From a virus, in the IMG/VR virus record IMGVR_UViG_3300025502_000011: a stretch of DNA of 64,000 bases; one strand, 5' to 3'. A model generated the notes under the pieces. That model ran no database searches. It had not been told where the DNA came from and saw nothing but the letters and a program-made list of their open reading frames with translations. Positions 1,046 through 52,137 of the stretch are shown one piece after another; the first letter of the stretch is position 1, and each line of letters opens with the position of its first letter. The translations under genes and the position numbers were made by a program.

Positions 1046-3373
1046 TTACTCGTAAATTGGCTGGTCAAACTCTTCCAGTAAAGTTTTTTTAATATATCCG
1101 TAAATGTCATGATATTCCATATCCATCCTCGGATACGGCATTGATTTGTATTTCGCCATTATACGCAATAATTCAAGATTTGTGCTATGCTTTGGAACTT
1201 TTAAAAATCTAGTGTAATCAAAAGCGCAATCTGGCTCATCGTTAAGATGTTTAATTATCTTAAATACTTTTGCTAGTGCGTTGGAGTCTTCATGGAAGTC
1301 TTCGGGTATAGAATCATAAATAGGAGTTGATTTAGGCTGTGTCCATTCTTTTTTTGCCCATTTTTTAGCAGTAAAAAAGATTTCATTTCCTTTGCTTCTA
1401 TAGCTAGTTTCTTGTATTTTATGGACTTCCGAGTTTTCACTTTTAATCGTTAACCTATTAGGATAAATTTTCTCATGTAAATCCATGCGGCTTTGTCGAT
1501 ATTTTGTGTTTAACCAGATTCTTCTTAAGGCTTCATTTTCTTTACAATGTTTATTATACAAAGAATATAGGTTATCTAAAGTTGTTTCCCCTTGACTTTG
1601 TGTTAGAAAATTAAACCATAAGTCAGACAGTTCTCGTGAGTACATTGTTTCGCGGGCTCTATTCTCACTTCGTCCAGAATTATCTGAAGGGATTCGATAT
1701 GTTAGAATTTCAGACTGGTCATCATAATCTCCCCACCTGTCGACACGGCCTACTCTTTGAAGAGTAGCTTCTGGAGACAGGCAACTTTCAATCAAATGCC
1801 TAAAAGAAACATCTAAAGATGCCTGTGCTATTGGGCTCGCTATTACGTGTTCTTTTTCAATATTTCTGTCGGATTGCTTTCCATAGTTTTGAAGAATAAC
1901 GCTTAATCGCGCTTGATTGTCGTCGTCCTCAAATTTTCCATGAAACAAAATAGTATCTTCATTGTGTTTGTGCTTATTTCTTTGACACTCAACTATAGAA
2001 TTAGAGATAAAAAGAACAGGGCTTTTTTTACTTTCAGATATTCTAGAACGCCCCTCTTTTGTAGTGAGTTTGTATGATTTATTGTGGACAGCAGGAGCAT
2101 GTTCAAATTTTCCAGGCAAATGGGCTGTTGAGTTGTCAAATGAATCCCAATAAACTGATAAATCAAGTGGGGTTGCGGACAGCAGTAAAGAGCGTCCGTT
2201 TGTCATCTGATGTCTTACCTTCATTAGATTTATAAAACCAGCCAGTAAAGCCCCGTCCGACACTAGCTCATGATACTCATCAAATACAACATCTGCATCG
2301 GATACCATTAATAAATCAATATCGTTACAATGCTCTTTTGTCGGACGTAAAAAGTTATCTACGTTGGTTACAATGATATCGCTTGAAAACTTTATTCCTA
2401 AATCTGAATTTGAGGCCTGTTGTTTTCCAGCGTAATATAATTCTACTGAAGTTTCAATTCCTGCATTTTTAAGCTCTCTTAAGATGTTGTGGTACACTGA
2501 TTGTGCCACAGCATTTCTTGGACACACCCAAATAAGCCGTTTATTGTTGACAGTGCTCCAAAGTAAACCTAGAAGTGTTTTTCCGTATCCAGCAGGGGCG
2601 TTGATTTGAACAGTCTTAAACGAGGTCGTCCTAGATGCTAAAGCAACTTGTTGTGTCCATCTTTTTTCATGTCCAGGATATGGGCATTTAGTAAAAGCGT
2701 AACGGTGTTGTTGAATCAGTCGTTCATTTATAGTTTTTTTAATTTCATCAACTGTAAAATCTCCTAATTCACTAACTAAGTGGTCAGCTCTTACCACGCA
2801 CATGCGAATAATCGTGTTGTCAACGTTGAGGTCGCTCGTCTCGTTAAAATCTCTAATATAGTAATGAGGGCTTGATGTTTCAGCTATTCTTGGCCTATCA
2901 AGGACTTGGCCAGGAAATAATTCTTCGACGAATTCAATCATTCTATCGATAGAATTATCTTTCTTCTTCCGAACCCACTCAAGAATAGACGCATCTGTGT
3001 GCTTGCCCATTACATTGTTAATGCCGTGATGCCAGTATACTGCTTCAGCAACTTGTCTTAGCTCCTCTGAGTCAAAGCTGATGTACATTCTTACAAATGC
3101 CCATCCCACTTCATTGTGCGAAAAAATAATGTCTTTTTTCTTTGTTTTAGTGGATTTACCATTTAAAGAGTTTCGGAGTAAAGTTTGAAACTCGGTTTCG
3201 GCTTTTCCAATATCATGAAGAAGCGCCGCTTTGCGGATAACTGATATAAAATGTTTTTTTTCTGTATCTGAGGTAACTATAACTGAGTCGGCAATATATT
3301 CCGCAACCTCAGCAACCTTTCGACTGTGCTCAATCAGGGTTTCGCCAGTACTTTTTGCTAATAACTCATCCAT
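1046..3373 (-). CDS. cas3: CRISPR-associated HD nuclease/SF2 helicase Cas3
   Basis: HD domain (HSRKV, LLHDIGK, SHNEVG, WHHG, RADH) fused to SF2 helicase motifs (APAGYGKT, DEYH, SAT, QRVGRVDR). Confidence 0.92.
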   Translation of the reverse strand: MDELLAKSTGETLIEHSRKVAEVAEYIADSVIVTSDTEKKHFISVIRKAALLHDIGKAETEFQTLLRNSLNGKSTKTKKKDIIFSHNEVGWAFVRMYISFDSEELRQVAEAVYWHHGINNVMGKHTDASILEWVRKKKDNSIDRMIEFVEELFPGQVLDRPRIAETSSPHYYIRDFNETSDLNVDNTIIRMCVVRADHLVSELGDFTVDEIKKTINERLIQQHRYAFTKCPYPGHEKRWTQQVALASRTTSFKTVQINAPAGYGKTLLGLLWSTVNNKRLIWVCPRNAVAQSVYHNILRELKNAGIETSVELYYAGKQQASNSDLGIKFSSDIIVTNVDNFLRPTKEHCNDIDLLMVSDADVVFDEYHELVSDGALLAGFINLMKVRHQMTNGRSLLLSATPLDLSVYWDSFDNSTAHLPGKFEHAPAVHNKSYKLTTKEGRSRISESKKSPVLFISNSIVECQRNKHKHNEDTILFHGKFEDDDNQARLSVILQNYGKQSDRNIEKEHVIASPIAQASLDVSFRHLIESCLSPEATLQRVGRVDRWGDYDDQSEILTYRIPSDNSGRSENRARETMYSRELSDLWFNFLTQSQGETTLDNLYSLYNKHCKENEALRRIWLNTKYRQSRMDLHEKIYPNRLTIKSENSEVHKIQETSYRSKGNEIFFTAKKWAKKEWTQPKSTPIYDSIPEDFHEDSNALAKVFKIIKHLNDEPDCAFDYTRFLKVPKHSTNLELLRIMAKYKSMPYPRMDMEYHDIYGYIKKTLLEEFDQPIYE

Positions 3374-6791: not shown

Positions 6792-8408
6792 TTACTTAAC
6801 TAAGAAACCAACTTCATAAGTCATCCATCTGAGTTTTTCTTCAAGGATTTTATAGGCTACCGTTAGTTTTTTAAATAAATCTGGCTTGTCTTTTTTCCAA
6901 TGCTCCTTTAGTTGAGAATAACCCGCATCCCACCTGTCCAAATGGAGTTCTGGGTGAGCTTTGGCATAAACCATTCGTTCTGGGCCGCTCCAATATAGCA
7001 TTTTATTAGCTATCTCCAACACATCTACTGCATCTTGAGACATGTGTTTCACATTGCTCTGAATCATACTGTTCATTATCGTGGCTGACCTGTCTTGTTT
7101 ATGTTCAATGTCTATTAGACATGGGTCGCCCCAGAAAAAGCTGTTTCTTACATCATATTCCTGCTTTTTAAAAACAATTCCGCCTATCGAACTTTGATGT
7201 GACGCTGAATGGAACAAAGAGTAAACTAAAGAGTCTGCAGCGTATTGATTCCATAGTTCAGCAGAGGTGTTTGGGGCCATGTATTCGTCTTTTTGGTTAA
7301 TCCAGGTGGAATACGGTCCCACGTGAGTCTTTCGTGCCGCAAACAAGCTACAAACCTTCTTTAGATTATCTGGTATAATAGAGAACCCGTTTCCTTTTGA
7401 CGCAGCCCAGCTATATAGCGCTACTTGTTGTGGGTTTTCATAAATATTGTTTGATGCATTCAGAAAATATCCAATCGCTCCATCAACAAGGCTTCCTCGC
7501 ATTGTTTTGCCTTCCACTTTCCATTTTAATGCACTTGTGAACTGAGGAATGTTTTTATTTGACCTTAATCCTTTTGTCTCTTCCCTTGCCCAGATAGATG
7601 CTGCTTCTCTTTGGTCTGTGTTGTATAATTCTTTACGTTTTGGAAGAACTCCTTTGATGCGAGGGTCTGCAATCACTTCATAACTCCAAGATGTTCGTTC
7701 ATCTAATCCTGGGGTCATCAAAGTGAAGGTTATTCCCCAGTCTGACTTTACCTCCATGAATTCTGATGCTGGAAACAAAAAACCGTCTTGGACCCTAAAA
7801 TTCTTAAACATCCTTTCTCTAAAAGTTTTAAAACTTGACCCAGTTAAAAAAAGAGGTGGTGAAAACACGGCAATTACAACATTGGAAATACCATATGCTT
7901 CTTTTATCGCATTGATGCGATAAAGAAACTGAGCGTAGAGCTGTTGAGATGACTTTCCCCAACCGTTTTCTCGCATTTCATTATTAATCCAAGTCTTGGC
8001 TGTTCCTGATTTATGGCTTGAGGTTGCTCCTTTATTGTTAGCGGTTGCGTATGGAGGATTTATTAAAAAGACGATTGGTTTGTCATCTTTTATTGCTTGT
8101 TTTAAAGCTGGCGACTGAGTCGTTAGCTTTTCAGAGTCATCATTAAGGAAGTCAAACTGAAAAGCTTGCTGATTTGAAACTGTTTCACACTTATCAATAT
8201 CAGCTTTATGAAGAGTTGAACTATACAATTCTTTAAATTCATATCCTTGGGTAAGGTTCATAAAGCCCGAAGCACAGTCCCACACCACATACTCTTGTTT
8301 CCAGTTTTTTCCCAAGTTGTCCTGAATCAGCCTATGTGCTTCGTCCACCCATATTTGAGGTGTATAAAATTCGCCTTCTCTTTTCTTTTTATCCAATGTG
8401 ATAGTCAT
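6792..8408 (-). CDS. N6-adenine DNA methyltransferase (type IIG/Eco57I-like MTase plus TRD-like region)
   Basis: GEFYTP, VWDCASG (SAM binding), INPPY (catalytic). The likely start is MTITLDKK at 8408; the track extension runs into a cassette-site half. Confidence 0.8.
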   Translation of the reverse strand: MTITLDKKKREGEFYTPQIWVDEAHRLIQDNLGKNWKQEYVVWDCASGFMNLTQGYEFKELYSSTLHKADIDKCETVSNQQAFQFDFLNDDSEKLTTQSPALKQAIKDDKPIVFLINPPYATANNKGATSSHKSGTAKTWINNEMRENGWGKSSQQLYAQFLYRINAIKEAYGISNVVIAVFSPPLFLTGSSFKTFRERMFKNFRVQDGFLFPASEFMEVKSDWGITFTLMTPGLDERTSWSYEVIADPRIKGVLPKRKELYNTDQREAASIWAREETKGLRSNKNIPQFTSALKWKVEGKTMRGSLVDGAIGYFLNASNNIYENPQQVALYSWAASKGNGFSIIPDNLKKVCSLFAARKTHVGPYSTWINQKDEYMAPNTSAELWNQYAADSLVYSLFHSASHQSSIGGIVFKKQEYDVRNSFFWGDPCLIDIEHKQDRSATIMNSMIQSNVKHMSQDAVDVLEIANKMLYWSGPERMVYAKAHPELHLDRWDAGYSQLKEHWKKDKPDLFKKLTVAYKILEEKLRWMTYEVGFLVK

Positions 8409-8478
8409 GCTTTTAATATGAGCATGAGCGTAAAAAAAAGAAAGGAACAAATAATAAAACGGTGCATACGCACAATGC

Positions 8479-8518
8479 TGATAGCAAACTTTATTATACA
8501 CCTTGTTAGTTATACACA
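8479..8518 (+). mobile_element. Inverted half attC-like site
   Basis: 8479-8501 (TGATAGCAAACTTTATTATACAC) is the exact reverse complement of 9935-9957 in site A; it ends in the GTTAGTTATACAC core. Confidence 0.75.
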
Positions 8519-8608
8519 GTACGGTTATTTAAGGTAGAATTTTGATACGAAGAAAGAATAAACTTTTTAAAAATGTGCGGTGAAAATTTTAATTCTGAAT
8601 ATTTATAT

Positions 8609-8790
8609 GTGAACTACCCATCTACAGCAAGCTGATGGAAGGGCTTCTAAAAAAATATAAATGCAAAGAGCAGATACATATTCAGAATTTACAGCGTTTC
8701 GTAGACTTGCCCATTGGCAACGCCTCACCGCCTTTTTATTTATCCTGCGAAGTTGGCCCCAACCCACAGCTTAATATTTTGTTTCGCTTA
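8609..8790 (-). mobile_element. IS200/IS605 right-end (TnpB omega-RNA-like) remnant without TnpB
   Basis: Minus strand ends ...GAAGCCCTTCCATC-loop-GATGGGTAGTTCAC, resembling IS605 right ends; the preceding AKQNI..G reading resembles a decayed TnpB C-terminus. Confidence 0.55.
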
Positions 8791-8868
8791 TGATTTTATG
8801 CAAACAACGAAAAAGAACTTATTTGTAAATATATAAAAAACGCTTACATCTCACCCACGCTAAATCAT

Positions 8869-9186
8869 ATGGAACAAGAAAAAAAATTAAAGAACTTCAT
8901 TAAAACTACAATCATAGAGTTTTTTAATGAACAATATGAAAATATTCAACATTATGATTTATTTGAATATTATGAAAAACAACCAAAAGAATTAAAGGTA
9001 ATTGTAGATAAATATTTGAATTTATTAGATAAACGTAAAGGTTATGATGTGATTAAGAAATTTCACGATGCAGTTTATAAAATAGGTTATACGTTTGATA
9101 GTGGATTAGATGCTGAACCACACGGTTTAAGACCCATAGGGGTTAAATTAAATCAGTTGGTAGGTTGGGAAGATATAGATAATTAA
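8869..9186 (+). CDS. Cassette-borne hypothetical protein with a putative head-targeting N-terminus (inverted cassette)
   Basis: KLKNFIKTTIIEFFNE leader; flanked by complementary cores GTTATACAC (8510) and GTGTATAAC (9204). Confidence 0.7.
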   Translation: MEQEKKLKNFIKTTIIEFFNEQYENIQHYDLFEYYEKQPKELKVIVDKYLNLLDKRKGYDVIKKFHDAVYKIGYTFDSGLDAEPHGLRPIGVKLNQLVGWEDIDN

Positions 9187-9212
9187 AACACGAATGTAGT
9201 ATTGTGTATAAC

Positions 9213-9324
9213 GCCACTTTTCATTTGTGAAAATTTTATCACCAATATTCTCATTTACAAACTGCTTAAAGTTCTTAACTTTATCAATCATTTCTCTCAT
9301 ATCTTTACTCACTGGTCTGTTCAT
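9213..9324 (-). pseudogene. Truncated cassette gene
   Basis: MNRPVSKDMREMIDKVKNFKQFVNEN matches the N-terminus of 12102-12620, then breaks at the GTTATAC core at 9212. Confidence 0.6.
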
Positions 9325-9442
9325 TTTCTTGGTTGTTTGTTAGTGTATGCCGTACACTGTATTGAATTTATTCGCTTGTTATGTGTAAGTGTTACATTCA
9401 TCGTTCTAATCAACATTTAGGTTAAAAAATTTAAAAGACAAT

Positions 9443-9838
9443 TTACCCCAATATTTTTTGAACCCAATCAGGTAATTTACTAAATTTAATTAATTTACAT
9501 TTTACTGTTGGTAAATTATTTCTAATTGATTTTTGAATCCTGTGATTTCCATCAAGAATATATTTAATAGATTTATCATCATTCATCAAAATCAATACTG
9601 GGTATTGTATGTCGGATTTTTCTATTTTATCAATTTCTTCTGTGTTTCCGTCCCAAGTTAATACAATATTTTTTAGTTTATTGGTATCCATTTCTTGAAC
9701 TTTAATGTTTTTTGTAAGGTCTAATATCTGAACTAACGTAACTGTTTGGTTGTCATTATTTGTCCAAGATGTATCTTCTAAACCTTCATTCAAAAATTCT
9801 CTTATAGTTGTTTTAATAAATCCTCTCAAATCTTTCAT
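9443..9838 (-). CDS. Cassette-borne ParB/Srx-like domain protein
   Basis: YPVLI...ILDGNHRI motif; leader MKDLRGFIKTTIREFLNE. Confidence 0.7.
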   Translation of the reverse strand: MKDLRGFIKTTIREFLNEGLEDTSWTNNDNQTVTLVQILDLTKNIKVQEMDTNKLKNIVLTWDGNTEEIDKIEKSDIQYPVLILMNDDKSIKYILDGNHRIQKSIRNNLPTVKCKLIKFSKLPDWVQKILG

Positions 9839-9922
9839 TGTTTTCTTTTATATATAAATACTTAGAATTTAAATTTTTGTTTATTTCTTCGTATCAACAT
9901 TTTACCTTAATTAACCACACCC

Positions 9923-10020
9923 ACACATAACAACGTGTATAATAAAGTTTGCTATCAAGTTCAGTGGTAATTTAAAAGTTCATCTAAGCAAACCTTCTCA
10001 TACACCCATTCGTTACCCAC
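9923..10020. mobile_element. attC-like site A
   Basis: ACATAAC...GTGTAT..AGTTTGCT / AGCAAACC..ATACAC...GTTACCC imperfect palindrome. Confidence 0.85.
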
Positions 10021-10041
10021 AATGTAAAAAGCCGCCAAGCT

Positions 10042-10560
10042 TTACGGCTGTATGTTTAGCAACTCTTTTTCTCTTTTTCTAATACTTCTATAATCTATAA
10101 AGTTATGTGTTCCTTTATTCGCTTTTTCGCCAAATATTATAATACTCATTCCCATCCATAAACCTCGTGGTTCATCATTAAAATTTACTTCACCGTTTAT
10201 AAAACGTATTTCTGCATCAATCATAGTTTCTGCCCACCATTTTGTATTACTTCTTACTGGTATTAAGCAAACTTTTGTGCCACCATTTATTAACGCTTCG
10301 TTATGTGCTTTTTTAACCCATTTACTTAAATTTCTATCAAATGGAGGGTTCATCCAACAATTACCAATCCAATCTTTATTTAAAGAATTATCTTCTTTAG
10401 TCCAGTATTTTGGTAATTTATGATTTAATGAACTTGCACAAACATCAGTAGTTATTGCAAACTCTTTTATTAAAGGTTGTACAATCGTTTTAGGTGTACT
10501 ATACTCAATGCTTTTACTCTCAAAAGAGTTGTTTTTATTTCCAATTTTATCTATTCCCAT
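10042..10560 (-). CDS. Cassette-borne phage N6-adenine methyltransferase (Dam-phage family)
   Basis: YSTP, DVCAS, W.GNCWMNPPF, LIPVRSNTKWW motifs. Confidence 0.85.
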   Translation of the reverse strand: MGIDKIGNKNNSFESKSIEYSTPKTIVQPLIKEFAITTDVCASSLNHKLPKYWTKEDNSLNKDWIGNCWMNPPFDRNLSKWVKKAHNEALINGGTKVCLIPVRSNTKWWAETMIDAEIRFINGEVNFNDEPRGLWMGMSIIIFGEKANKGTHNFIDYRSIRKREKELLNIQP

Positions 10561-10605
10561 TCTGTATGTATTTGCCCTCGTACCTCACGCACGGCTTTTT
10601 AAAAA

Positions 10606-10739
10606 GTGGGTAACACCGTATAAAAAACATTGCTAAATTGTGCAATATCAAAGGTCTGTTAATATTAATTTACTTTATTTCTAATCGTTAATTCTGTGCT
10701 TTCTAAACGCAACATTTCTTATACATGTACGTTAGCAGA
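10606..10739. mobile_element. attC-like site B
   Basis: GTGGGTAAC-ACC-GTATAAA ... TTATAC-ATGTAC-GTTAGCA. Confidence 0.85.
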
Positions 10740-10746
10740 AATAAAA

Positions 10747-10953
10747 TTATCCAGCCACCACACCATCAATAACCTTTCGTAGTTCAACATTTATTTCATC
10801 TCGCAAGTCCAACAATTCATCCATTGTTAAGTAACTTAAACTATCTTCATTCAGCCATAGTTCAAATGACCTTCTACCAGTTGAATGATAGATACGAATT
10901 GTTTCAATCTTCGTTTTCAGTGTTTCCGTTTGTCCCCCGTCTTTGATTTTCAT
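10747..10953 (-). CDS. Cassette-borne hypothetical protein
   Basis: 68-aa ORF filling the interval between sites B and C. Confidence 0.65.
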   Translation of the reverse strand: MKIKDGGQTETLKTKIETIRIYHSTGRRSFELWLNEDSLSYLTMDELLDLRDEINVELRKVIDGVVAG

Positions 10954-11016
10954 TTTTGTTTCAATTTATATTTACGAGCATCCCACGCTCAAAAGGGATA
11001 ATTTTACATCTGCTAA

Positions 11017-11071
11017 TGCTAACAACGTATAAAGTGCATTAAAACGCCACTTATACTAAGCATTAGCAAAC
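11017..11071. mobile_element. attC-like site C (right core ATT instead of GTT)
   Basis: TGCTAAC-AAC-GTATAAAGTG...CACTTATAC-TAAGC-ATTAGCA. Confidence 0.85.
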
Positions 11072-11263
11072 ATTAAAATCCACCTCTCTACCTTCTCCGC
11101 AAATATGGTAAAAGTCTTCTTTGTGGGCTTGCTCTCCTTTTTTCCAAACCCTTATATAAACATTTCTCGTAATTTTATTTCTCCTTGCTTTTATACCGTT
11201 TAGCTCTCCGTACTCAAACGGTTTGCTAACAAAGTATAAATAACATTGCTTAATTAGGTTCAT
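11063..11263 (-). CDS. Cassette-borne hypothetical protein whose start codon lies inside site D
   Basis: MNLIKQCYLYFVS N-terminus is encoded by site D; the stop codon overlaps the core of site C. Confidence 0.65.
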   Translation of the reverse strand: MNLIKQCYLYFVSKPFEYGELNGIKARRNKITRNVYIRVWKKGEQAHKEDFYHICGEGREVDFNVC

Positions 11264-11319
11264 AGTTTTAAATTTAGTGCTGCAAGTCGCAACGTTTCTT
11301 ATACTAGTCATTAGCACCA
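11221..11319. mobile_element. attC-like site D (right core ATT)
   Basis: TGCTAAC-AAA-GTATAAA...TTATAC-TAGTC-ATTAGCA; closely related to sites B and H. Confidence 0.85.
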
Positions 11320-11322
11320 ATA

Positions 11323-11898
11323 CTACGAAAGTACTTCGATTGAAAGTATTTTAATTTTAGTTTCATCGAATATCAATAAATTTAATTCTTTTGTTTCGAT
11401 GATATATGTTCCGTCATAACCATTAAGTTTCAACCAATCATATACCCAAGTTTGCTCAATTGATGAATAATCACCATCCAATAAATTATTATACTTTCTA
11501 TCAATGTCATCATCAGGAAATTTATCCTCGATATATTCTAAAAGATTTTTACCAATTACATAATATTCTACGCCAATTTTATCATTTACTTTACTTTTTT
11601 CATAATACATTAATAAATCATAGGTTGATGGTAACTTTCTAAAATCTATAATATTATTAGTTAAAACTTGAATTTTGTAAATATGTGGTGAATAATTACC
11701 AGCATAGTATTTAGCAAATTCAATATTTGATGTTAAAAATATTGGTGATTTGTAATTTATATCAAATAAAGTTCCGTTTTTTATCTTGAATTTATCGAAT
11801 TTTTCTTTAGAACCGTGATACCAAGTATTATCATTTACTATAAGTTGCTCATTAAGATATTCTCTAATCGTTGTCACTATAAACTTTCTCAATTCCAT
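11323..11898 (-). CDS. Cassette-borne protein with an ADP-ribosyltransferase-like fold and head-targeting leader
   Basis: WYHGS..F..F and IFLTSN..FAKYYAG ART-like motifs; leader MELRKFIVTTIREYLNE. Confidence 0.55.
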   Translation of the reverse strand: MELRKFIVTTIREYLNEQLIVNDNTWYHGSKEKFDKFKIKNGTLFDINYKSPIFLTSNIEFAKYYAGNYSPHIYKIQVLTNNIIDFRKLPSTYDLLMYYEKSKVNDKIGVEYYVIGKNLLEYIEDKFPDDDIDRKYNNLLDGDYSSIEQTWVYDWLKLNGYDGTYIIETKELNLLIFDETKIKILSIEVLS

Positions 11899-11949
11899 TC
11901 TTTTATATATAGATATTCCAAAATTAAATTTCTGACAAACAAACCGTAC

Positions 11950-12019
11950 TGGTGCTAACGCTATGTATATTCCAGTTTTGTGAAAAACAAAACCGATAAC
12001 ATACATTTAACGTTATGCT
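11950..12019. mobile_element. attC-like site E
   Basis: 11956-12012 is identical over 57 bp to 12683-12739 in site F. Confidence 0.88.
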
Positions 12020-12101
12020 CCATGCCTTAGTTCAGTTCTTCAATTTAACATTTGTGATAAAAAACAAAAAGAATTTTGCCAACGCACCTTATTTTTCAAG
12101 A

Positions 12102-12620
12102 CTATCTCTGTTTATTAATTTCTTTCATCACTTCACTATAATTCATATTAGGTTCGACATCGTAATAATTAATTACATCCTTAAAAACATCTTCACCATC
12201 AAATCCATCTCCAAGTATAAAATTTGAACTTTTAAACACTACAAGTTCTTGTTGTAGACTATCTTTATGATGCCAAGAAATATCTTCAATTTCTTCAATA
12301 GCCTTATTGAACGATTTTTCATCATCAAATCCATATCCTGATAAACCCCATTCGGGTTCACTATTCCACATACCATTTGTAACATCTTTTCTTGGTGGAT
12401 ATGGTACATATTTACCGTCCCCAACTCTCTCGTTGTAATCATCCATAGCATCTTTCTCCGTTTCAAACCATGCTTGCATATTTCCACTAAAATTACGTCT
12501 AGTATCATCATCTGCATCGCTTGTCCATCTTAGAAAATATTTGGAATTATTAAGATTTTCATTTACAAATTCCTTAAAGTTCTTAACTTTATCAATCATT
12601 TTTCTCACATCTTCGCTCAT
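12102..12620 (-). CDS. Cassette-borne hypothetical protein with a putative head-targeting leader
   Basis: MSEDVRKMIDKVKNFKEFVNEN; likely start at 12620. Confidence 0.7.
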   Translation of the reverse strand: MSEDVRKMIDKVKNFKEFVNENLNNSKYFLRWTSDADDDTRRNFSGNMQAWFETEKDAMDDYNERVGDGKYVPYPPRKDVTNGMWNSEPEWGLSGYGFDDEKSFNKAIEEIEDISWHHKDSLQQELVVFKSSNFILGDGFDGEDVFKDVINYYDVEPNMNYSEVMKEINKQR

Positions 12621-12678
12621 AGTATCTTTATATAAAAATAGTTTCAAATAAACATCATCCTTTAATAATTCAACACGT

Positions 12679-12748
12679 AGCATAACGCTATGTATATTCC
12701 AGTTTTGTGAAAAACAAAACCGATAACATACATTTAACGCTGTGTGTA
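12679..12748. mobile_element. attC-like site F
   Basis: 57-bp identity to site E; right core GCTGTGT. Confidence 0.88.
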
Positions 12749-12751
12749 ATG

Positions 12752-12934
12752 CTACACTTTTGTACGTCTTGGCGGTGGCTTAGATTTTTTGGTTCTGATT
12801 TCTTGGAAGTCACACTCTTTGTCGTAAAATTTACTACAACATCTTGCGCCTATTCCAAACAATGAGCGTTTAATATTTTCATTGGTACACCAAGCACCTT
12901 TGTTATTATATTTACAATTTATCTTTCTTTCCAT
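12752..12934 (-). CDS. Cassette-borne small Cys-rich protein
   Basis: 60-aa ORF between sites F and G. Confidence 0.6.
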   Translation of the reverse strand: MERKINCKYNNKGAWCTNENIKRSLFGIGARCCSKFYDKECDFQEIRTKKSKPPPRRTKV

Positions 12935-12963
12935 TTCAATATTATTTAATTAATAATCCGCAC

Positions 12964-13030
12964 TACACACAGCACTTTGTATAGTGCATAGTTCGTTCCT
13001 CACAACGCCACCATACAAGGGGCGTTGCCA
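12964..13030. mobile_element. attC-like site G
   Basis: ACACAGC-ACTTTGTAT...ATACAAGGGGC-GTTGCCA. Confidence 0.8.
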
Positions 13031-13245
13031 TTAGAGTTTAACCAAACATAAGCTGTCGGGTCATACTTTTTTGGCTTTCCTAAATATTGGCTTTTATCGC
13101 AAACCTTACACTCTCGTCTAAATCCTTGTTCGTATATCTGTTTACATTTTTTATCTTTAAATCTAGTCCATTTGCTTATCTCCCAAAAGTGTAAGGAAAA
13201 ACGGCAACTAACATTGTATAAAAAACATTGCTTAATTCTATTCAT
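13000..13245 (-). CDS. Cassette-borne hypothetical protein starting inside site H
   Basis: MNRIKQCFLYNVS N-terminus is encoded by site H; CKVC motif. Confidence 0.65.
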   Translation of the reverse strand: MNRIKQCFLYNVSCRFSLHFWEISKWTRFKDKKCKQIYEQGFRRECKVCDKSQYLGKPKKYDPTAYVWLNSNGNAPCMVAL

Positions 13246-13268
13246 AATTTTAAATTTAGTGCTGCAAG
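13203..13268. mobile_element. Truncated attC-like site H (array boundary)
   Basis: Matches site D through ...TTAGTGCTGCAAG, then similarity stops abruptly. Confidence 0.8.
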
Positions 13269-13300: not shown

Positions 13301-13990
13301 TTAAAAAACTCTCTGTGTTAGTCTCTCAAATCCGTCCTTCCATGTTTCGTGTTTATCAAATCTTTCACCACAACCAGTGGTTCCACCTTTCCAGCTTCCT
13401 CTTCTCTTTCCTACTTCTGAAGAGAATTCAACGTCAATTGTACGACTCACTTGGCTGAACATAGTTGTTCGTTTGAACCATCTCATTCTCCATTCTCTCT
13501 CCGAGATGGATATATCGGCATTAACCACGTTCAGTTCTCCATTTGGAGTGTGCTTATCAACATACGGCATATTAGTTCTCCACATTTTCTCTTTCCATTC
13601 GTCTTTATAAAAGTCTTGTTTGTCGCCTTTTATTGAATGAACCCATGTTCCATCCTTCAGTTTAATGCTGTGGCGAACGTGGTCGAGATTCCAGGGCATA
13701 TTAATGTATTTAGATTTCTTTCCGTAACGAATAACAAAGCTCTGACTCTGCCAACCATCCTGATACCAATAACAGCCGTACTGTTCTGAGTCGCCGTAAT
13801 CCTTTCTCTTGTGTGACCAGGGCATACTCCAAAACAGGCTCCAGAATAGGAATGCTATATGGATTTGGGGTCTCTCATCATCAGAATACCCGTGGCACTC
13901 GTAAGTTAAGTGAAAAGCAACTGGTTTTCCCCAGCTGTATCTATAAAATGATATATTATCGTTTTCAAACTTCTTTGTGGGGTTTCGCAT
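13301..13990 (-). CDS. Phage hypothetical protein
   Basis: 229-aa ORF. Confidence 0.7.
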   Translation of the reverse strand: MRNPTKKFENDNISFYRYSWGKPVAFHLTYECHGYSDDERPQIHIAFLFWSLFWSMPWSHKRKDYGDSEQYGCYWYQDGWQSQSFVIRYGKKSKYINMPWNLDHVRHSIKLKDGTWVHSIKGDKQDFYKDEWKEKMWRTNMPYVDKHTPNGELNVVNADISISEREWRMRWFKRTTMFSQVSRTIDVEFSSEVGKRRGSWKGGTTGCGERFDKHETWKDGFERLTQRVF

Positions 13991-14062
13991 TCTACAAATG
14001 TAATCAATTTTACAAATATAAAAACTGTTCGAAGGGCGGCCTTTTTCTATCTGTAATTCAAG

Positions 14063-14134
14063 AGGGGCGTAGGGGGTTCGAACCCCTGACGTACAGGGTT
14101 AAAGCCTGATGTTCTACCTCTGAACTAACGCCCC
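14063..14134 (-). tRNA. tRNA with anticodon UUA (ochre suppressor)
   Basis: GGGGCGT-TA-GTTC AGAGGTA GAAC-A-TCAGG CTTTAAC CCTGT-ACGTC-AGGGG TTCGAAC CCCCT-ACGCCCC-T; canonical cloverleaf with a 7-nt anticodon loop. Confidence 0.88.
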
Positions 14135-16651: not shown

Positions 16652-16731
16652 TGGTGGTGAGGGAAGGACTTGAACCTTCGACCTCCAGGGTTTTAAAGCC
16701 TGGTGCTCTGAACCAACTGAGCTACCTCACC
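16652..16731 (-). tRNA. tRNA with a 9-nt anticodon loop (CUUUAAAAC)
   Basis: GGTGAGG/CCTCACC-A-CCA; CCAGG CTTTAAAAC CCTGG; canonical D and T arms. Confidence 0.8.
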
Positions 16732-16735
16732 AAGA

Positions 16736-16780
16736 GGCCCCAGGAAGACTTTCTCTTCCTCTAGTGCTAATGCAGGGGCC
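16736..16780 (-). ncRNA. Mini tRNA-like RNA, family A copy 2
   Basis: GGCCCC-TGCATTAGCACTAG-AGGAAG AGAAAGT CTTCCT-GGGGCC. Confidence 0.75.
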
Positions 16781-16781
16781 G

Positions 16782-16835
16782 TGGTGGCGTGGGAAGAAAC
16801 GAATCTCCCGCGAATCCCTAATGGACTCTCACGCC
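16782..16835 (-). ncRNA. Mini tRNA-like RNA, family B copy 2 (CCA encoded)
   Basis: GGCGTG-AGAGTCC atta GGGATTCGC-GGGAGA TTCGTT TCTTCC-CACGCC-ACCA. Confidence 0.7.
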
Positions 16836-16871
16836 TTTTTTAAATTCCAACACGTCAATGAACTTTTGTTG

Positions 16872-16945
16872 TGACAGGAGAAAGATTCGAACTCTCGTCC
16901 CCAGGTTTTTAAGGCCTGGTGCTCTAACCGCTGAGCTATCCCGTC
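16872..16945 (-). tRNA. tRNA with a 9-nt anticodon loop (CCUUAAAAA)
   Basis: GACGGGA/TCCTGTC-A; CCAGG CCTTAAAAA CCTGG; T-arm GAGAG TTCGAAT CTTTC. Confidence 0.8.
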
Positions 16946-20601: not shown

Positions 20602-22122
20602 TTATTCCTTAGTTGCAAGCTCAGCAAAATCAACATAATTGTTGATAGTGTTGATAAGCGCTCTTTTGTCGACTTCTAGATTGTCAATGACATCAAAAAT
20701 CTTTTCAGAGAATCCTCTTAGCGCGAATACGTTCTTCTCTGGGAACTGCATGCTTCCGCTTGCAGCCAAGTTGAACTCGTAAACTTTACAGTCCTGAGCA
20801 CCGTACTTCTTCTTGTACGCTGCAAACTGAGTTTTTGGAGTATTGTACTCCATCCACGCTTGCATGTCCGAGAAGATGAATACACGGTCGTATTTCGCCT
20901 TCATCTTAACGAAGATGTCTTGGAAGTTCGTTCCGTGACCAACCCTGTACTTGCCAACGTTGCCGTAGCCTTGGTTTGTATCAACAATCCAGTTTGCCAT
21001 ACCCATTACTGAGTCATTCACGTTAACTGGAAGGTACATTGCGTGTGTTCCAAACGACATTACATCAGCATCACTAGCCTTGGCCATCATGGCTCCAAAT
21101 AGAGCTGCCACTTTATTCCTGTAAGTTTTACCTCCAGCAATTGGGCAATCCATAGAACCTGACAGGTCAATTACGACTGCAGTGTTTCCATCAAACTTTG
21201 GAATGTTAGAACAAGCTAGGTCTACGGCGGTGTTAAGCGCTCTTTGAACTTTCTTAGACTTTGTTCCAGTCAACACTGTAATCTCGTCGAGTGCAGTGAT
21301 GTATCTGAATGGAAGAATCAGTGACTTCTTAATTCTTGCCTCTGTAGTCAACAGCTCGCATGCCTTGTTAAGAACCTCGTCAGAAGCATCTTGGATGATG
21401 TTTCTAAGGTTTCTTAGAAGAGCAAACTGTCCAATCTTACCTGACATAACCAAGTCAGACCAAGCCTCAGCTTTGTTTGCGGCTTTCTCCTCAGAGGTCT
21501 TCGCTCCCTGGCCAGCTGCGGACAGCTTAGACTCGAAAGTGTTTTCACTCTTTAGGGTTCCAGCAACAAGCTCGGCAAGTGCCTTCTCGTTTCTAGCCGT
21601 TCCTTTTGGACGAACCAAGTTTACAACGTCAACAAGCGATACTTCATTCTTGTCTCCTCTGTACTTGGCAAGCTGGTATGCATCGAACTTTCCGAAAGCT
21701 TTCTTGAAACCTTTCTTTAGCGCGTTTGGCAAAGATGCTTTCTTACCCTCTCTACCGAAGTAGTAGGACATAATCTCAGTCATGTCGTCTGGACGACGTA
21801 CAATAGCTGCGTAAAACTCTTTAGCCCAGGCCTTACCTGAGGCGTGCTTAGCGATTTCACCCGCAAGTACGTGGGTGATAGAACGCATTCCAAACTCGTT
21901 ACGGGCATAGACAGCCGCCTTTGCTGCGAACTCTGGGTCCACTTTGCTAAGAACGGATGTCAACTCCTTTATTTGGTCTCCTGCCTTCGAATAGAAGTCA
22001 TCAGACACAAACGAGTTCAACAGAATCGTCACAAGCTCTAACTCTGGAGTCGACTTATAAGCCTCTCCTCCCGCTTTGTTGGTAGTCATTTCTACCTTTG
22101 ATTTTTCGTTAAATTTTGACAT
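20602..22122 (-). CDS. Ro60/TROVE-domain RNA-binding protein
   Basis: TTNKAGGEAY, FAAKAAVYAR.EFGMRS, FDAYQLAKY, FALLRNLRNI, LPFRY..A and vWA IDLSGSM motifs; likely start MSKFNEK. Confidence 0.93.
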   Translation of the reverse strand: MSKFNEKSKVEMTTNKAGGEAYKSTPELELVTILLNSFVSDDFYSKAGDQIKELTSVLSKVDPEFAAKAAVYARNEFGMRSITHVLAGEIAKHASGKAWAKEFYAAIVRRPDDMTEIMSYYFGREGKKASLPNALKKGFKKAFGKFDAYQLAKYRGDKNEVSLVDVVNLVRPKGTARNEKALAELVAGTLKSENTFESKLSAAGQGAKTSEEKAANKAEAWSDLVMSGKIGQFALLRNLRNIIQDASDEVLNKACELLTTEARIKKSLILPFRYITALDEITVLTGTKSKKVQRALNTAVDLACSNIPKFDGNTAVVIDLSGSMDCPIAGGKTYRNKVAALFGAMMAKASDADVMSFGTHAMYLPVNVNDSVMGMANWIVDTNQGYGNVGKYRVGHGTNFQDIFVKMKAKYDRVFIFSDMQAWMEYNTPKTQFAAYKKKYGAQDCKVYEFNLAASGSMQFPEKNVFALRGFSEKIFDVIDNLEVDKRALINTINNYVDFAELATKE

Positions 22123-22226
22123 CTCGTCGTTGTTTATAATTGTTGTTATTCTATTAATTCTTTGTTTTTGGCGCATAAAAAAAAAGCACCACATCTTTGC
22201 AGAGGGTGCTTTTTCGAAAAATATAA

Positions 22227-24059: not shown

Positions 24060-24495
24060 GGTCTGAAAGAATAATGACACCGTCGTGGTTCTTTATAGAA
24101 AAGCGCGTGTTTATATCTAAGGTTAAGTCTCGAAACATCTTTCTAGGCTCTTCTCCTTCTTTGAGGGTGAAGTCTGCAAAAAAAGGATTTATTACTTCAT
24201 TTTCGTGAGATACAACTATTTCTCTCCTGACTGTGATATTAGAAACATCTTGAAAAAAAGACATATCCATAGCGGAGTAAACGGTGTTCACCACATAGTA
24301 ATCCTCGCAAGTATAATTTTCAATAAAGTCCTTTATGTGAAACATTAAGTTCATTATCTCCGCTACAGTCACTCCTGGGTCGATAAATGTTTTCTCTGAT
24401 AGATTTGCCAGTAAAAAGCTGGGTAGCTCATCGCCACCCAGCTTTACTGTCTGCCCGTCAAACTCTAGTACGTTATTCGGCTTTATTTTTAGCAT
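23956..24495 (-). CDS. Hypothetical protein
   Basis: 179-aa ORF. Confidence 0.65.
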   Translation of the reverse strand: MLKIKPNNVLEFDGQTVKLGGDELPSFLLANLSEKTFIDPGVTVAEIMNLMFHIKDFIENYTCEDYYVVNTVYSAMDMSFFQDVSNITVRREIVVSHENEVINPFFADFTLKEGEEPRKMFRDLTLDINTRFSIKNHDGVIILSDLNQSFSFLELIVFVFDELYYTATSKSEDATPIEM

Positions 24496-26518
24496 TCGTA
24501 TTTCTTTTTTGGATAAACACCTTTTTATCTTTCTCTCTATAAGAGAAGGTTATTGAGGCTCCTTCTTTTATTTCGCCCTTGAGGACAGCTTGCGCAAAAG
24601 TGTTCTCCAAATGTGATGTTATAGCTCTTTTAAGGGGTCTTGCTCCAAACTTCTTATCATAACCTACGTCTGCTATGAAATCTTTCACACTGTCTGACAC
24701 TTTAACCTTATAACCTCTTTGTTCAATTCTGCTTATAACAACTTGTAGTTCCAAGCTAACAATGTCCATTATCTCGTCCTTTGTAAGTGGCATGAAGATT
24801 ATTTTCTCGTCAATGCGGTTGATTAGCTCTGGTCTGAAAAAATTTCCAAGCTCTCCCATGATAAGTTTCTCAATATCTTCTTGCTCTGTTTCTTTTGCAG
24901 CAAATCCAAGTGATTTATTCTTAAACAGCTTATCAGTTCCAATATTTGATGTCATAATGATGACAGTGTTTTTAAAGTTAATCTCTTGCCCATGATTATC
25001 CGTCAGTTTGCCTTCGTCAAAAATTTGAAGCATAATATTGAATACGTCTGGATGCGCTTTCTCTATTTCATCAAACAATAGTATGGAGTAAGGTTGGTTC
25101 TTAATTTTTTCAGTCAACAAACCCTTGTCTTCATGGCCAATGTAACCAGGGGGAGACCCAATCAACTTAGCGACCGATATCTTCTCCATGTATTCACTCA
25201 TATCAAACCTAATGAAAGACTCTGGGAGGTCAAACATGTACTCAGCTAGCATTTTGCTTAAGTATGTCTTACCTACTCCTGTTGAACCTAAAAACAATAA
25301 AGATGCAATTGGTTTGTTTGGGTCCTGTATGCCTACGCGAGACCTTTGGACTGCCTCACAAATTTTTTCAATAGCTACTTTCTGTCCGATGACTCTATCT
25401 GAAAGGTATGTTTGCATTTTCAAGAGCTTATTGCTTTCATTATCTGTAAGCTTAGACACAGGTATACCTGTGTGGGATGCGATGATTGCTGCTACGTCTT
25501 TTTTTGTGATAGGTTGTTTGTCATCTTTTAAGGACTGCTTCCATTTTTCAGTCATATTCTGGATGTTCTGCTTAGTGCTTCGCTCTTTATCGCGAAGTTT
25601 TGCTGCGACTTCATATTGCTGCTTCGCTACGGCTTTTTTCTTATCTTGTTCAATCTCTTGAAGACCTTCTTCGGCATCTTTTAGGTCTTTAGGTATTTCT
25701 CTAAATCCAAGCTTTGCTTTTGAGCCGACTTCATCTAAGACATCTATTGCTTTATCTGGGAAATTCCTGTAGTTAATATATCTATCTGACAGCTCAACTA
25801 TAAATTCTAATGTTTCGTCTGAAAATGATACGCCGTGATAATCTTCATAGCGTTCCTTTATTTGTTTTAGAATTTCAACCGTCTGCTTCGCAGTTGGAAC
25901 CGACAGCATGACTTTCTGAAATCTTCTATCAAGCGCTGAGTCATTAGCAATTGTTTTTTTGTGTTCCTCTAAAGTTGTTGCTCCAATAACACGCATTGTA
26001 CCACGAGCTAGCTCTGGTTTAATGATTTGAGATGCATCCATTGAACCAGATGCACCACCAGCTCCCATGAGATTGTGAATTTCATCAATAAATATGATAA
26101 CATCGTCATTTTTTACTGCTTCGTCAATAATAGCCTTCATTCGCTCTTCGAACTGGCCACGGTACTTTGTTCCTCCGACCAAGGAGGACAAATTTAATTC
26201 AATAATTCTTTTATTGAGTAACCATCTATCAGTTTTGCGATTTACGATTCGCAAAGCCAGCCCTTCGACTAATGCTGTTTTTCCTGTTCCAGCCTCTCCT
26301 ACGATTATGGGGTTATTCTTCTTTCTTTTGTTGAGAATTTGGACCATCATGTCGATTTCTTCTTCTCGCCCTATTACAGGGTCGAGTTCTCCTTTTGCTG
26401 CTAGCAGCGTTAGGTCTCTACCAAAATGTTCTAATACCTGCGTGGAACCCTCTGTGAAAGAAGGGCCCATCCCTTTTTCATCGTCATCAGGGTCTTGAGA
26501 AAATGCTCGTCCTGCCAT
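24473..26518 (-). CDS. clpB: ClpB/ClpC-type double AAA+ ATPase lacking the N-terminal Clp-N domain
   Basis: LDPVIGR, GEAGTGKT, KYRGQFEERMK, FIDEIH, GSTGVGKT, LFDEIEKAH, GARPLKR. Confidence 0.9.
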   Translation of the reverse strand: MAGRAFSQDPDDDEKGMGPSFTEGSTQVLEHFGRDLTLLAAKGELDPVIGREEEIDMMVQILNKRKKNNPIIVGEAGTGKTALVEGLALRIVNRKTDRWLLNKRIIELNLSSLVGGTKYRGQFEERMKAIIDEAVKNDDVIIFIDEIHNLMGAGGASGSMDASQIIKPELARGTMRVIGATTLEEHKKTIANDSALDRRFQKVMLSVPTAKQTVEILKQIKERYEDYHGVSFSDETLEFIVELSDRYINYRNFPDKAIDVLDEVGSKAKLGFREIPKDLKDAEEGLQEIEQDKKKAVAKQQYEVAAKLRDKERSTKQNIQNMTEKWKQSLKDDKQPITKKDVAAIIASHTGIPVSKLTDNESNKLLKMQTYLSDRVIGQKVAIEKICEAVQRSRVGIQDPNKPIASLLFLGSTGVGKTYLSKMLAEYMFDLPESFIRFDMSEYMEKISVAKLIGSPPGYIGHEDKGLLTEKIKNQPYSILLFDEIEKAHPDVFNIMLQIFDEGKLTDNHGQEINFKNTVIIMTSNIGTDKLFKNKSLGFAAKETEQEDIEKLIMGELGNFFRPELINRIDEKIIFMPLTKDEIMDIVSLELQVVISRIEQRGYKVKVSDSVKDFIADVGYDKKFGARPLKRAITSHLENTFAQAVLKGEIKEGASITFSYREKDKKVFIQKRNTNAKNKAE

Positions 26519-26626
26519 TTTTTTATGTCTATTGTTATATTGTAGTACAACAATAGACATAAAATGGGACAAATTCAAATTTATTCATGATGCCCACAAA
26601 TCGTTTTTACGTTTGTGGGTAGTTCA

Positions 26627-49920: not shown

Positions 49921-52137
49921 TTAGTTTTCAATTAGTTCTTCACATTTAATAGTTAGAATATCATCGTCTTCTTTTAACTCATTTACATAAACCCACTCAT
50001 CTCCTGTAGTTCGACTCACAAGAAATCTATGATTTCCCGTAGCCTCCATTGTAGACCCATCTTCCATTTCTATATGGTAGACCTGCTTATGCCCATTGTA
50101 GTACATCTTATCAGTTTCAACCTCTCCATTCATCGTGTCAACAATAACTGACTCTTTAAGAGTAATCCAATGTGGAGCATCAACCGACTCAATAGTTTTC
50201 CAATCAATTCCACTTTGTTCTAAAATAGATTTGAAATTATTCACTTTTCCTTGGCTAAAGAACTCAGTGTCAATTACTTGACAACTTGCTGTAGGCATTG
50301 GAGCCAACAGCAGAGAGTTTCTAGCTCCAAACTCTTTCACTTTGTCCTTTAGACCATTCCAGTCCAAATTTAGATTCGGTGAGAGCTGAGACTCTTCCCA
50401 GTAATCAAACTGGAAAATGCCTTTGCTTAGGTCTGAGCCTGGGAACGTTTCATATGCTCCATCTTTCATAGCTTCCTCCATAGAGGCCTCCATAGAAGCG
50501 AAGTAAATCATTTCGAAGATTTCCCTATTAAGTTGCTTTGCTACCTCCGAATCGAATGCCACGTGCATCTTAGCGAACACATCGGCTAAACCTTGAACAC
50601 CAATGCCAATTGGTCTGTGACGTAGGTTTGATTTCTTAGCCTCCACAACTGGGTAGAAATTTCGGTCGATAACCTTGTTAAGGTTTTTTGTGACCACCTT
50701 TGTAACCTCATATAGCTTATCAAAATCAAACTCGTACACTTTCTTGCTTGGGGTCTTAGCTGTGTTTGTTTGCTTCAAATACATTGGCAACGCAATAGAT
50801 GCAAGATTACAAACAGCTACTTCATCTGGAGAAGTGTACTCCATAATTTCTGTACAGAGATTAGAGGACTTGATTGTTCCCAAGTGCTTTTGATTAGATT
50901 TATGGTTAGCGGCATCCTTGTAAAGCATGTATGGAGTTCCTGTTTCAATTTGAGATTCAAGAATCTTGAACCAAATGTCTTGAGCAGGGATTGTCTCACG
51001 CCCTTTGCCTTGCCTCTCATATTTGGTGTACAACTTCTCAAAGTCATCTCCATAGCAGTCTGAAAGCCCAGGGCACTCGTTAGGGTCCATTAAAGTCCAG
51101 CTTGCGCCTTCATCAACTCGTTTCATAAACAAGTCTGGAATCCACATCGCGTAAAACAAATCTCTCGCACGCATCTCTTCTTTTCCTGTGTTCTTTTTCA
51201 AATTAAGAAACTCGCGTATGTCTGCATGCCAAGGCTCTAAGTAGATTGCAAAAGAACCTTTTCGTTTTCCTCCACCCTGGTCAACATAACGAGCTGTGTC
51301 GTTAAAGTTTCTAAGCATTGGAACAATTCCATTAGAGGTTCCGTTGGTTCCTTTAATATAAGAGCCTTTGGCTCTTATGTTGTGAATGCTCAACCCTATC
51401 CCTCCAGCTGATTGTGAAATCAATGCACACTGCTTTAAAGTGTCATATATTCCATCAATAGAATCATCTTTCATCGTTAACAGGAAACAGGAAGACATTT
51501 GCGGTTTTGGAGTCCCTGCATTAAACAATGTAGGTGTTGCATGAGTAAAATACTTCATGGATAATAAATCATAAGTCTCTATAGCTTTGTCAATATCATC
51601 CATGTGAATACCTACTGCAACGCGCATAAAAAGATGTTGAGGCCTTTCTGCTGGTGTTCCATGAGTCTTAAGAAGATACGAGCGTTTCATTGTCATGAAT
51701 CCAAAATAGTCAAGCTGAAAATCTCGGTCTTGAATGATTGCCCCATTAAGTCTTGCACTGTTTTTTTTCACCACCGCATAGGCTTCCTCGCTAATAAGCG
51801 GTGCTGGTGCTTTTGTGATTGGGTCGACATACTCGTAGAGGTCTTTTATTGTCTGAGAAAACAATTTCTTTGTTTCCTTGTGAAGTGAAGTAATGGCTAT
51901 TCTGGCTGCCAACTTTGAGTAATCTGGATGTGTTGTAACAAGAACGGCTGCCTTCTGAGCTGCTAATTCATCTAATTGCGTTGTTGATACACCGTCGAAT
52001 ATTCCTTGAATAACTTTTTGGGCTACTTCTGAATAATTAACTGCCTCCGATAAATCATAGCATTGCTTTTTAATTCTAGCAGCTATCTTATCAAACCTAA
52101 CTTCTTCCTTAGAGCCGTTGCGTTTAGTAACTTGCAT
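49921..52137 (-). CDS. nrdA: Ribonucleotide reductase class Ia alpha, N-terminal fragment (618 aa) fused to a split-intein N-half (120 aa)
   Basis: ATP cone, [36 protein letters not shown]|CQVIDT...ATGNHRFL. Confidence 0.95.

Follow-up and report, generated by a model that had tools for sequence, protein, structure and literature searches.

Integrons, including the sedentary chromosomal ones, are regarded as bacterial devices built from a tyrosine recombinase (IntI), a terminal site (attI) and cassette sites (attC), in which a special domain of IntI is relied upon for the folded hairpin sites. Their cassettes carry one gene each, the attC sites are imperfect palindromes in which outer (R) and inner (L) boxes accompany a conserved AAC/GTT, a core specific to the cassette is complementary between the two ends, exchange occurs at G/TT, and the folded substrate is one strand (the bottom strand), which folds better than the other and has extrahelical bases. 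PeSL cassettes of T4-type phages, each repeat of which contains an early promoter and a terminator-like stem-loop, would reportedly recombine by homology, and the pdif modules of Acinetobacter plasmids and the CTX-type phages use 28-bp dif-like sites together with host XerCD. Clusters of attC sites without an integrase (CALINs), with methyltransferase genes as cargo, were described in virulent phages, including Polaribacter phage P12002L (Qi et al., 2023, Front Microbiol 14:1091391, PMC9892861). Here we analyzed an array of small genes and hairpin sites at positions 8479-13268 of a 64,000-nucleotide stretch (the window) of the virus record IMGVR_UViG_3300025502_000011. We consider it likely that this array consists of about nine mobile cassettes that integron-type site-specific recombination has brought together.

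The window is part of a 141,051-base IMG/VR viral contig, which is linear, has a GC content of 38.7%, is estimated to be 64% complete and was present in 24 salt-lake metagenome runs. The source is a large uncultured phage of a salt lake. The array contains about nine single small genes separated by seven full sites and two half-sites, all of which are imperfect palindromes of 55-136 nucleotides (nt). The sites all have one orientation, each site lies 5' of its gene, and the sense strand of all array genes but one is the minus strand. The GC content at 9-13 kb was 27-32%, in comparison with 37-40% in the flanks, which agrees with the AT-richness noted in a preliminary description of this DNA. 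The same description proposed an integron-like array with attC-like sites, and this is supported by complementary cassette flanks, box layout, covariation, strand bias, borders at TAA/C and switching of neighbours, as presented below.

The array type is partly anticipated in print as phage CALINs. Like the phages of Qi et al. (2023), the window phage has a recombinase-less attC-like array with a DNA methyltransferase gene as cargo, and P12002L attC1 belongs to the same site family. However, those phages were reported with 2-4 sites each, which were treated as bacterial integron components, and chains of eight or more cassettes with complementary flanks, a 5' site position or an array-adjoining non-IntI recombinase were not described there. 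Our literature search also found no description of a recombinase-linked phage platform, of the 5' site position or of such long chains in phages.

Complementary cores flank each cassette

On the plus strand each full site reads xxxxxTAAC, 3 nt, an inner stem of GTATA type, a loop, a second inner stem of TATAC type, 5-6 nt and (G/A)TTAxxxxx. The inner stems are complementary within one site, and the variable outer cores are complementary across a cassette. In all 8 cases, one outer core of a cassette was an exact reverse complement of its counterpart on the opposite side; this regularity is referred to as the flank rule below. Complementary runs, counted outward from TT/AA between a right core and the next left core, were 8, 8, 6, 9, 9, 7, 9, and 5 nt long (mean 7.6); those of the 56 non-cognate combinations averaged 2.4 nt and did not exceed 6 nt. 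The cognate run was the maximum in every row, with one tie because TTAGCA is common to three cassettes. The nine core pairs quoted in the preliminary description were all found in the sequence, the inverted pair starting at 8509 and not at 8510, and its statement that each right core is the reverse complement of the next left core held in each case. It had also listed eight palindromes (A-H) plus half-sites; seven of them, B to H, are full sites and two half-sites accompany them, but A (9330-9386) is not a site of this family.

The architecture of attC sites, R''-L''-loop-L'-R' with conserved AAC...GTT (57-141 nt), was found in the seven full sites, and some cores were fully canonical (GTTAGGC). 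Sites F and G showed 100% identity over 57 nt and did not differ between TAAC and the G of R', and sites E and I were 89-91% identical over 53-61 nt (13216-13268 was 91% identical to 11234-11286). Family sites were searched for elsewhere in the 141-kb contig using blastn-short and a covariance model, and none was found. A regular-expression site finder and a plain count of inverted 10-mers were no better than shuffles in AT-rich DNA; the chained version alone discriminated.

These features can be joined in one scheme. In gene sense (the minus strand), a cassette would begin with a hairpin site, followed by the core GTTAxxxxx, a single small gene and, complementary to the first core, xxxxxTAA; from C-G on, the hairpin would comprise a spacer of 5-6 nt, two inner stems around a loop and a spacer of 3 nt. 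Upon excision as a circle, the two cores of a cassette would meet and complete one palindromic site, and each cassette would be flanked by its own inverted cores for this reason. Exchange would take place at TAA/C on the gene-sense strand (G/TT on the opposite strand), at the position also used by integrons.

The complementary flanks were also weighed against the view that each gene is a small transposon, a unit resembling a miniature inverted-repeat transposable element with terminal inverted repeats, or a unit of the Xer pdif-module kind. Inverted repeats of 7-14 nt flank every gene, the enzyme associated with the sites in relatives is Xer-like, and pdif modules are likewise bounded by inverted sites and served by the Xer family; CTX-type phages likewise use a folded single-stranded substrate and exchange of one strand. 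However, the inner stems match within a site and not across a cassette (in site C, 13 of 16 inner-stem positions matched the partner in the same site, and across-cassette matches were poor), and no transposase was found in the 141-kb contig. No target duplications were noticed, and no search was aimed at them. The sites are covarying hairpins of 55-136 nt in a single orientation and not 28-bp sites arranged as 11-6-11 that alternate in orientation, and the linked enzyme is phage-encoded, unlike that of pdif modules and CTX-type phages. We regard such units as a most improbable explanation of the array.

Folding, covariation and strand bias of the sites

The single-strand folds of the sites were computed, and at most sites the minus strand folded better than the plus strand (for example, -12.9 vs -9.1 and -9.2 vs -5.6 kcal/mol). 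A covariance model was built from the seven sites of the window, whose own scores of 46-70 bits are thus given by construction. Of the 45 sources searched with this model, 30 contained sites, 61 in total, of which 54 lay beyond the window's own. Each of the 61 sites lay inside a cassette array and pointed in the same direction as the genes and, if there was one, the recombinase, while control loci gave no model sites. In the alignment of the 61 sites, 90% of the stem cells were paired, and double-sided stem changes numbered 80, in comparison with 29 in shuffles and at most 33 in slid-partner controls. On the gene-sense strand, G.T was counted 104 times and A.C 8 times. Because the alignment was made with the model, these counts are biased towards structure, but the slid controls and the strand bias are independent of the fitting. 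The site spacers were asymmetric (5-6 vs 3 nt). The sites are predicted to fold as single-stranded DNA.

In the E-type sites (E and half-site I), an ATG and about 13 conserved codons (MNLIKQCYLYFVS / MNRIKQCFLYNVS) run in frame into two unrelated short cassette bodies, those of cassettes 4 and 8. This type of recombination site is thus predicted to double as a gene start.

Hairpins placed in this way could also be regulatory elements, that is, terminators, promoters or RNase-processing hairpins between early genes, like the PeSL elements; shuffling would in that case be a by-product of homologous recombination between the repeats. The structured strand is the mRNA strand, a site stands 5' of each gene, and E-type sites provide the start codon. 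The PeSLs are said to be similar in that repeated stem-loops stand between small genes in a hyperplastic phage region, for which modular shuffling via circles was proposed. However, the sites are long hairpins rich in AT that lack T-runs, a terminator scan gave 2 terminator-like matches, which is the chance level, and sigma-70-like promoters were not enriched (34 vs 28.9), Bacteroidota promoters being outside the scan. Moreover, homologous exchange between repeats cannot produce cassette-specific inverted cores that complete a palindrome, the homology borders lie at one fixed point, TAA/C, and a dedicated recombinase adjoins the sites in relatives. PeSLs reportedly have neither cassette-specific complementary cores nor a fixed crossover point nor a dedicated recombinase. 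A purely regulatory origin of the palindromes is therefore considered very unlikely.

Shared cassettes and switching of neighbours

The core of sites F and G recurred in eight contigs of Bacteroidota genomes or metagenome-assembled genomes (MAGs) and in four viral contigs that are otherwise unrelated; no exact match to the E/C-type core pattern was found in viral contigs. One of the four viral contigs, L007, has its own cassette chain with the same flank rule and different cargo. The loop of site D, CGTTTTAATGC, was common to L007 (103-160) and P12002L attC1, and the stems differed in a compensating fashion. L007 is 11 kb long and encodes a CTnDOT-type integrase with an arm-binding domain and an extracytoplasmic function sigma factor (genes at 7559-8767 and 9696-10271, both on the minus strand); it may be a fragment of a bacterium or an integrative element rather than of a phage. 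Among cultured phages, Flavobacterium phage mymlan6-1 (MN812227) carries at least seven cassettes with perfect 10-nt core pairs and four methyltransferases, and P12002L has the same site types as the window, its attC1 being matched by the covariance model. Site B was 80-89% identical to B-type sites in recombinase-linked arrays of four contigs (L033, L035, L041, and L043).

A methyltransferase cassette with an F-type site was common to mymlan6-1, L019 (88-92% identity) and L021 (75%), and its neighbours differed. In gene sense, the homology begins at the TAAC(G) of the upstream site and ends at TAACG past the gene. Because the homology borders fall at TAAC(G), the unit of exchange is taken to be a site followed by a gene, with the exchange point at TAA/C of the sense strand. 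A crossover at G/TT is likewise indicated by the identity of sites F and G and by contig switches at 11310/11311 and 13026.

L019 is a 4,991-base MAG contig that consists of one cassette chain and has the same F-type site with the same core (GTTACCAACA) at both ends, and it could represent an assembly circling through an array. The F-type site core was also present in L020 and at 1440-1460 of L023 (Flavobacterium psychrophilum DSM 3660, a cultured strain). The F. psychrophilum site lies in a stretch of about 7 kb that is 88-96% identical to a Flavobacterium MAG and in which the site finder detected no array; a prophage or a lone site may be present.

Junctions were surveyed in Logan contigs, not reads, from four salt-lake runs. 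The data showed that these contigs break or switch neighbour exactly at 9378, 11311, 12012, and 13026. A contig that matched cassette 1 with 0 mismatches started at 9378 and had 43 foreign letters on its left, and a contig identical over 11311-11927 had 39 foreign letters left of 11311. At site H in another run, the GTT at 13026 was followed by AGCTGC..., that is, by a different cassette. The F/G-type sites in salt-lake contigs were flanked by other cores, for example GCCGATAAC, GGGCGGTAAC, and GTTACCTGC. Contigs in two runs (X19 and X24) joined 12086, the 3' end of cassette 6, to 9247 in the truncated paralogue described below, which suggests that a variant short cassette exists in the population.

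The whole array was compared with 50,697 phage records. Megablast gave no match, and the distant-mode search matched the Dam gene and one site only. When the 569-amino-acid (aa) flanking protein was used to look for near relatives of the window phage, only homologues of 36-44% identity, without synteny and without arrays, were retrieved.

A short Xer-like recombinase adjoins the arrays of other phages

The preliminary description reported no integrase in the window. This absence extends to the 141-kb contig, in which no tyrosine, serine or Y1 recombinase was found and nothing matched PF00589. Two of the four contigs that share site F encode one, a CTnDOT-type integrase in one case and, in the other, a 267-aa Xer/IntI-like protein (PF13495 and PF00589) that directly follows a cassette. 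About 25 viral contigs, many of them 100-360 kb long, encode homologues of the 267-aa recombinase with 47-76% identity. The recombinase homologues in Flavobacteriaceae genomes had at most 50% identity and were mostly proteins of about 380 aa. Where upstream DNA was available (about 20 phage contigs), an array obeying the flank rule ended 45-60 nt before the recombinase start, as in L027, L030, L032, L033, L035-37, L039, L042, L043, L048-50, and L052. The recombinase lies downstream of the array genes and is co-oriented with them. Recombinases merely 21-28% identical had no adjoining arrays. In two complete jumbo phages (310 and 362 kb), the 267-aa enzyme was the sole tyrosine recombinase.

In the interval between array and recombinase (L027-L052), past the last cassette, a conserved motif, xxxxxTAAC-TAT(A)TTATATATA (also written TAAC-TATTATATATA), was present in most of the 19 loci. 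The motif is a candidate attI-like site. Like integrons, these relatives thus have a tyrosine recombinase beside a special terminal site.

The best solved relative of the 267-aa recombinase is archaeal XerA. Against the integron-integrase model TIGR02249 it scored 144 bits (cut-off 265). It has 32 residues where Vibrio IntI4 (PDB 2a3v) has 80, about 48 fewer, and therefore lacks the integron-specific insertion. This insertion is incompletely conserved within the integron-like subgroup (Smyshlyaev et al., 2021). Further differences from classical integrons were seen: no IntI is linked to the arrays, the phage site lies 5' of the gene whereas integron attC lies 3' of the cassette open reading frame (ORF), and the phage recombinase is co-oriented with and downstream of the cassettes whereas integron cassettes are transcribed away from intI. 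In addition, the phages belong with a phylum whose checked Flavobacterium genomes showed no classical integrons.

These observations bear on whether the array consists of ordinary bacterial integron cassettes with classical attC sites, a CALIN as understood by Qi et al. (2023), acquired by the phage and recombined by a host IntI. The box layout and the AAC/GTT cores, some of them canonical, fit attC, and so do the published P12002L sites: attC1, which our family model matches, was called an attC by HattCI, and a terminal site of that array was recombined by IntI1 (Qi et al., 2023, PMC9892861). However, P12002L attC1, which by the model is the sole published tested site in this family, failed in the IntI1 assay of that study. 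Among five genomes or MAGs that carry the site core, an integron integrase above the cut-off was found only in a Melioribacteraceae MAG, on a different contig from the core; none was found in two Flavobacterium genomes, a Sediminibacterium MAG and a Bacteroidota MAG. Moreover, in about 20 phage contigs the recombinase next to the array is not an IntI, and the 5' position of the site is the reverse of that in classical cassettes. Recruitment of host integron cassettes is therefore judged unlikely.

The likely enzyme of the proposed cassette exchange would be the 267-aa Xer-like tyrosine recombinase encoded by other Bacteroidota phages, and from the comparisons above the system is probably served by this short enzyme rather than by a classical IntI. 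Because the contig has no recombinase gene, the window array would be served in trans or be a relic.

Points weighing against a mobile cassette array

Several observations weigh against mobility of the window array through a phage recombinase. The 141-kb contig has no recombinase, the terminal motif TAAC-TATTATATATA is absent from the window, and by protein comparison the window phage is not close kin of the sampled recombinase-bearing phages, so a recombinase in the missing third of the phage genome cannot be assumed. The complete phages mymlan6-1 and P12002L carry arrays without a tyrosine recombinase, and adjacency of array and recombinase is therefore not universal. The strand that folds is also the mRNA strand, and the hairpin conservation could partly reflect an RNA function. 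Other phages that share the sites, instead of variants of this phage, may account for part of the contig branching. Neither circles nor excision products were seen among the contigs, in which circles are not visible.

The recombinase stretch of G002 was present in other runs, from lake water, and the salt-lake runs contained small shares of it only. The array itself has an inverted leftmost cassette, a truncated paralogue and an upstream terminal site that lacks one half; its downstream end in the window is the inverted cassette, followed by an unrelated gene. The inverted cassette, the truncated gene and the half-sites suggest partial decay, and the array shows past recombination at the cores together with some decay. 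Taken together, the data support the view that the window array, which is partly decayed and has no recombinase, belongs to an integron-like cassette system that is widespread in Bacteroidota phages and in which circular intermediates and catalysis by the 267-aa recombinase would be expected.

In a broader form, Bacteroidota phages would possess an integron-like platform of their own, with an Xer-like recombinase that lacks the IntI insertion and with a 5' hairpin site that can give the start codon. Arrays without a recombinase would be serviced in trans at co-infection, and methyltransferases and other counter-defence genes would pass through an exchange network that extends from 38-kb siphoviruses to 360-kb jumbo phages. 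We lean slightly towards this broader proposal. It would place the logic of integrons in phages, apparently combined with a reversed gene orientation and a simpler enzyme, and, if true, would bear on the origin of integrons and on the trade of counter-defence genes, such as methyltransferase genes, between unrelated phages. It also offers a compact pair of recombinase and site for experiments. For annotation, such arrays break metagenome assemblies at every site, and the sites are miscalled as small ORFs.

Cassettes, cargo and neighbouring genes

The limits of the cassettes, sites and adjoining genes are listed in Table 1; the cassette limits follow from placing the exchange point at TAA/C (G/TT on the other strand).

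Table 1. Cassettes, recombination sites and flanking genes of the array, in window coordinates
Feature	Position	Strand	Content	Cores, score or remark
Inverted cassette	8479..9212	+	3' half of B-type site (8479-8508), 105-aa gene (8869-9186)	GTTAG/TTATACAC at 8505-8517, end core GTGTATAAC at 9204-9212; pair exact
Remnant	9213..9377	-	Truncated 5' part of a paralogue of the cassette 6 gene (ORF 9148-9324)	
Cassette 1	9379..10012	-	Gene 9443-9838 (131 aa; phrog_17560), 5' site B	GTTATGTGT and ACACATAAC
Cassette 2	10013..10731	-	Dam-type DNA adenine methyltransferase 10042-10560 (172 aa), 5' site C	
Cassette 3	10732..11062	-	Gene 10747-10953 (68 aa), 5' site D	GTTAGCA and TGCTAAC
Cassette 4	11063..11310	-	Short ORF 11063-11263 (66 aa from MNLIKQ), 5' site E	ATG inside site E
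Cassette 5	11311..12012	-	Gene 11323-11898 (191 aa, weak ART-PolyVal likeness), 5' site F	
Cassette 6	12013..12739	-	Gene 12102-12623/12683 (173-193 aa), 5' site G	
Cassette 7	12740..13024	-	Gene 12752-12934 (60 aa), 5' site H	GCTGTGTGTA and TACACACAGC, non-canonical
Cassette 8	13025..13268	-	ORF 13000-13245 (81 aa)	GTTGCC and GGCAAC; start inside half-site I
Half-site	8479-8517			
Full site B	9923-10020			56.8 bits (covariance model)
Full site C	10606-10739			54.6 bits (covariance model)
Full site D	11017-11071			46.1 bits (covariance model)
Full site E	11221-11319			58.5 bits (covariance model)
Full site F	11950-12019			69.9 bits (covariance model)
Full site G	12679-12748			
Full site H	12964-13029			55.3 bits (covariance model)
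Half-site I	13203-13268		E-type, distal half lost	Upstream array end
Flanking gene, outside array	13301..13990	-	Acb3-like inhibitor of the cyclic-oligonucleotide-based antiphage signalling system (CBASS)	Upstream side; PF25187 at 7e-34
Flanking gene, outside array	6792..8501	-	About 540-569 aa, unknown function	Occupies the recombinase position of relatives

The half-site of the inverted cassette (8479-8508) was 97% identical to the reverse complement of 9928-9957, and its gene and leader resembled a cassette at L033 4746-5540, which is normally oriented there. The remnant is joined to the inverted cassette exactly at the GTTA core and showed 88% identity to cassette 6 (9244-9311 against 12552-12619); the covariance model found no family site in it. 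Cassette 2 has a terminator-like hairpin of its own at 10030-10049 in the terminator scan.

The cargo was compared with protein family models. The DNA methyltransferase noted in the preliminary description is a solid assignment (PF05869 at 2.2e-21, phrog_111 at 1e-35). Of its other cargo assignments, a ParB-like protein was not found in the array, the putative head-packaged proteins are not supported, and the ART-like protein, that of cassette 5, does resemble PF18760 (ART-PolyVal; 7e-6), but its 27.2 bits lie under the 31.2-bit Pfam cut-off. The other cassette genes encode small proteins of unknown function, and the search for cargo homologues in other arrays gave weak, partial matches only. 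An anti-defence role of the cargo is plausible.

The protein encoded at 6792..8501 had no Pfam match and is not a recombinase, and the loci of its homologues (L001-L006) had no cassette chains. Just upstream of the array, ARAGORN called a suppressor tRNA with anticodon UUA, which reads TAA (14062-14134, minus strand), and two tRNA-Leu(UAA) genes lie at 16652-16945. Other genes of the window, all on the minus strand, encode a Cas3-like protein of 775 aa with an HD nuclease, a DEAD helicase and a Cas3 C-terminal domain (1046-3373), a Ro60/TROVE protein with a von Willebrand factor A domain (20602-22194), a ClpB-like double AAA+ ATPase (24473-26578) and the large subunit of a class I ribonucleotide reductase, which carries a C-terminal segment resembling an intein (49921-52137).

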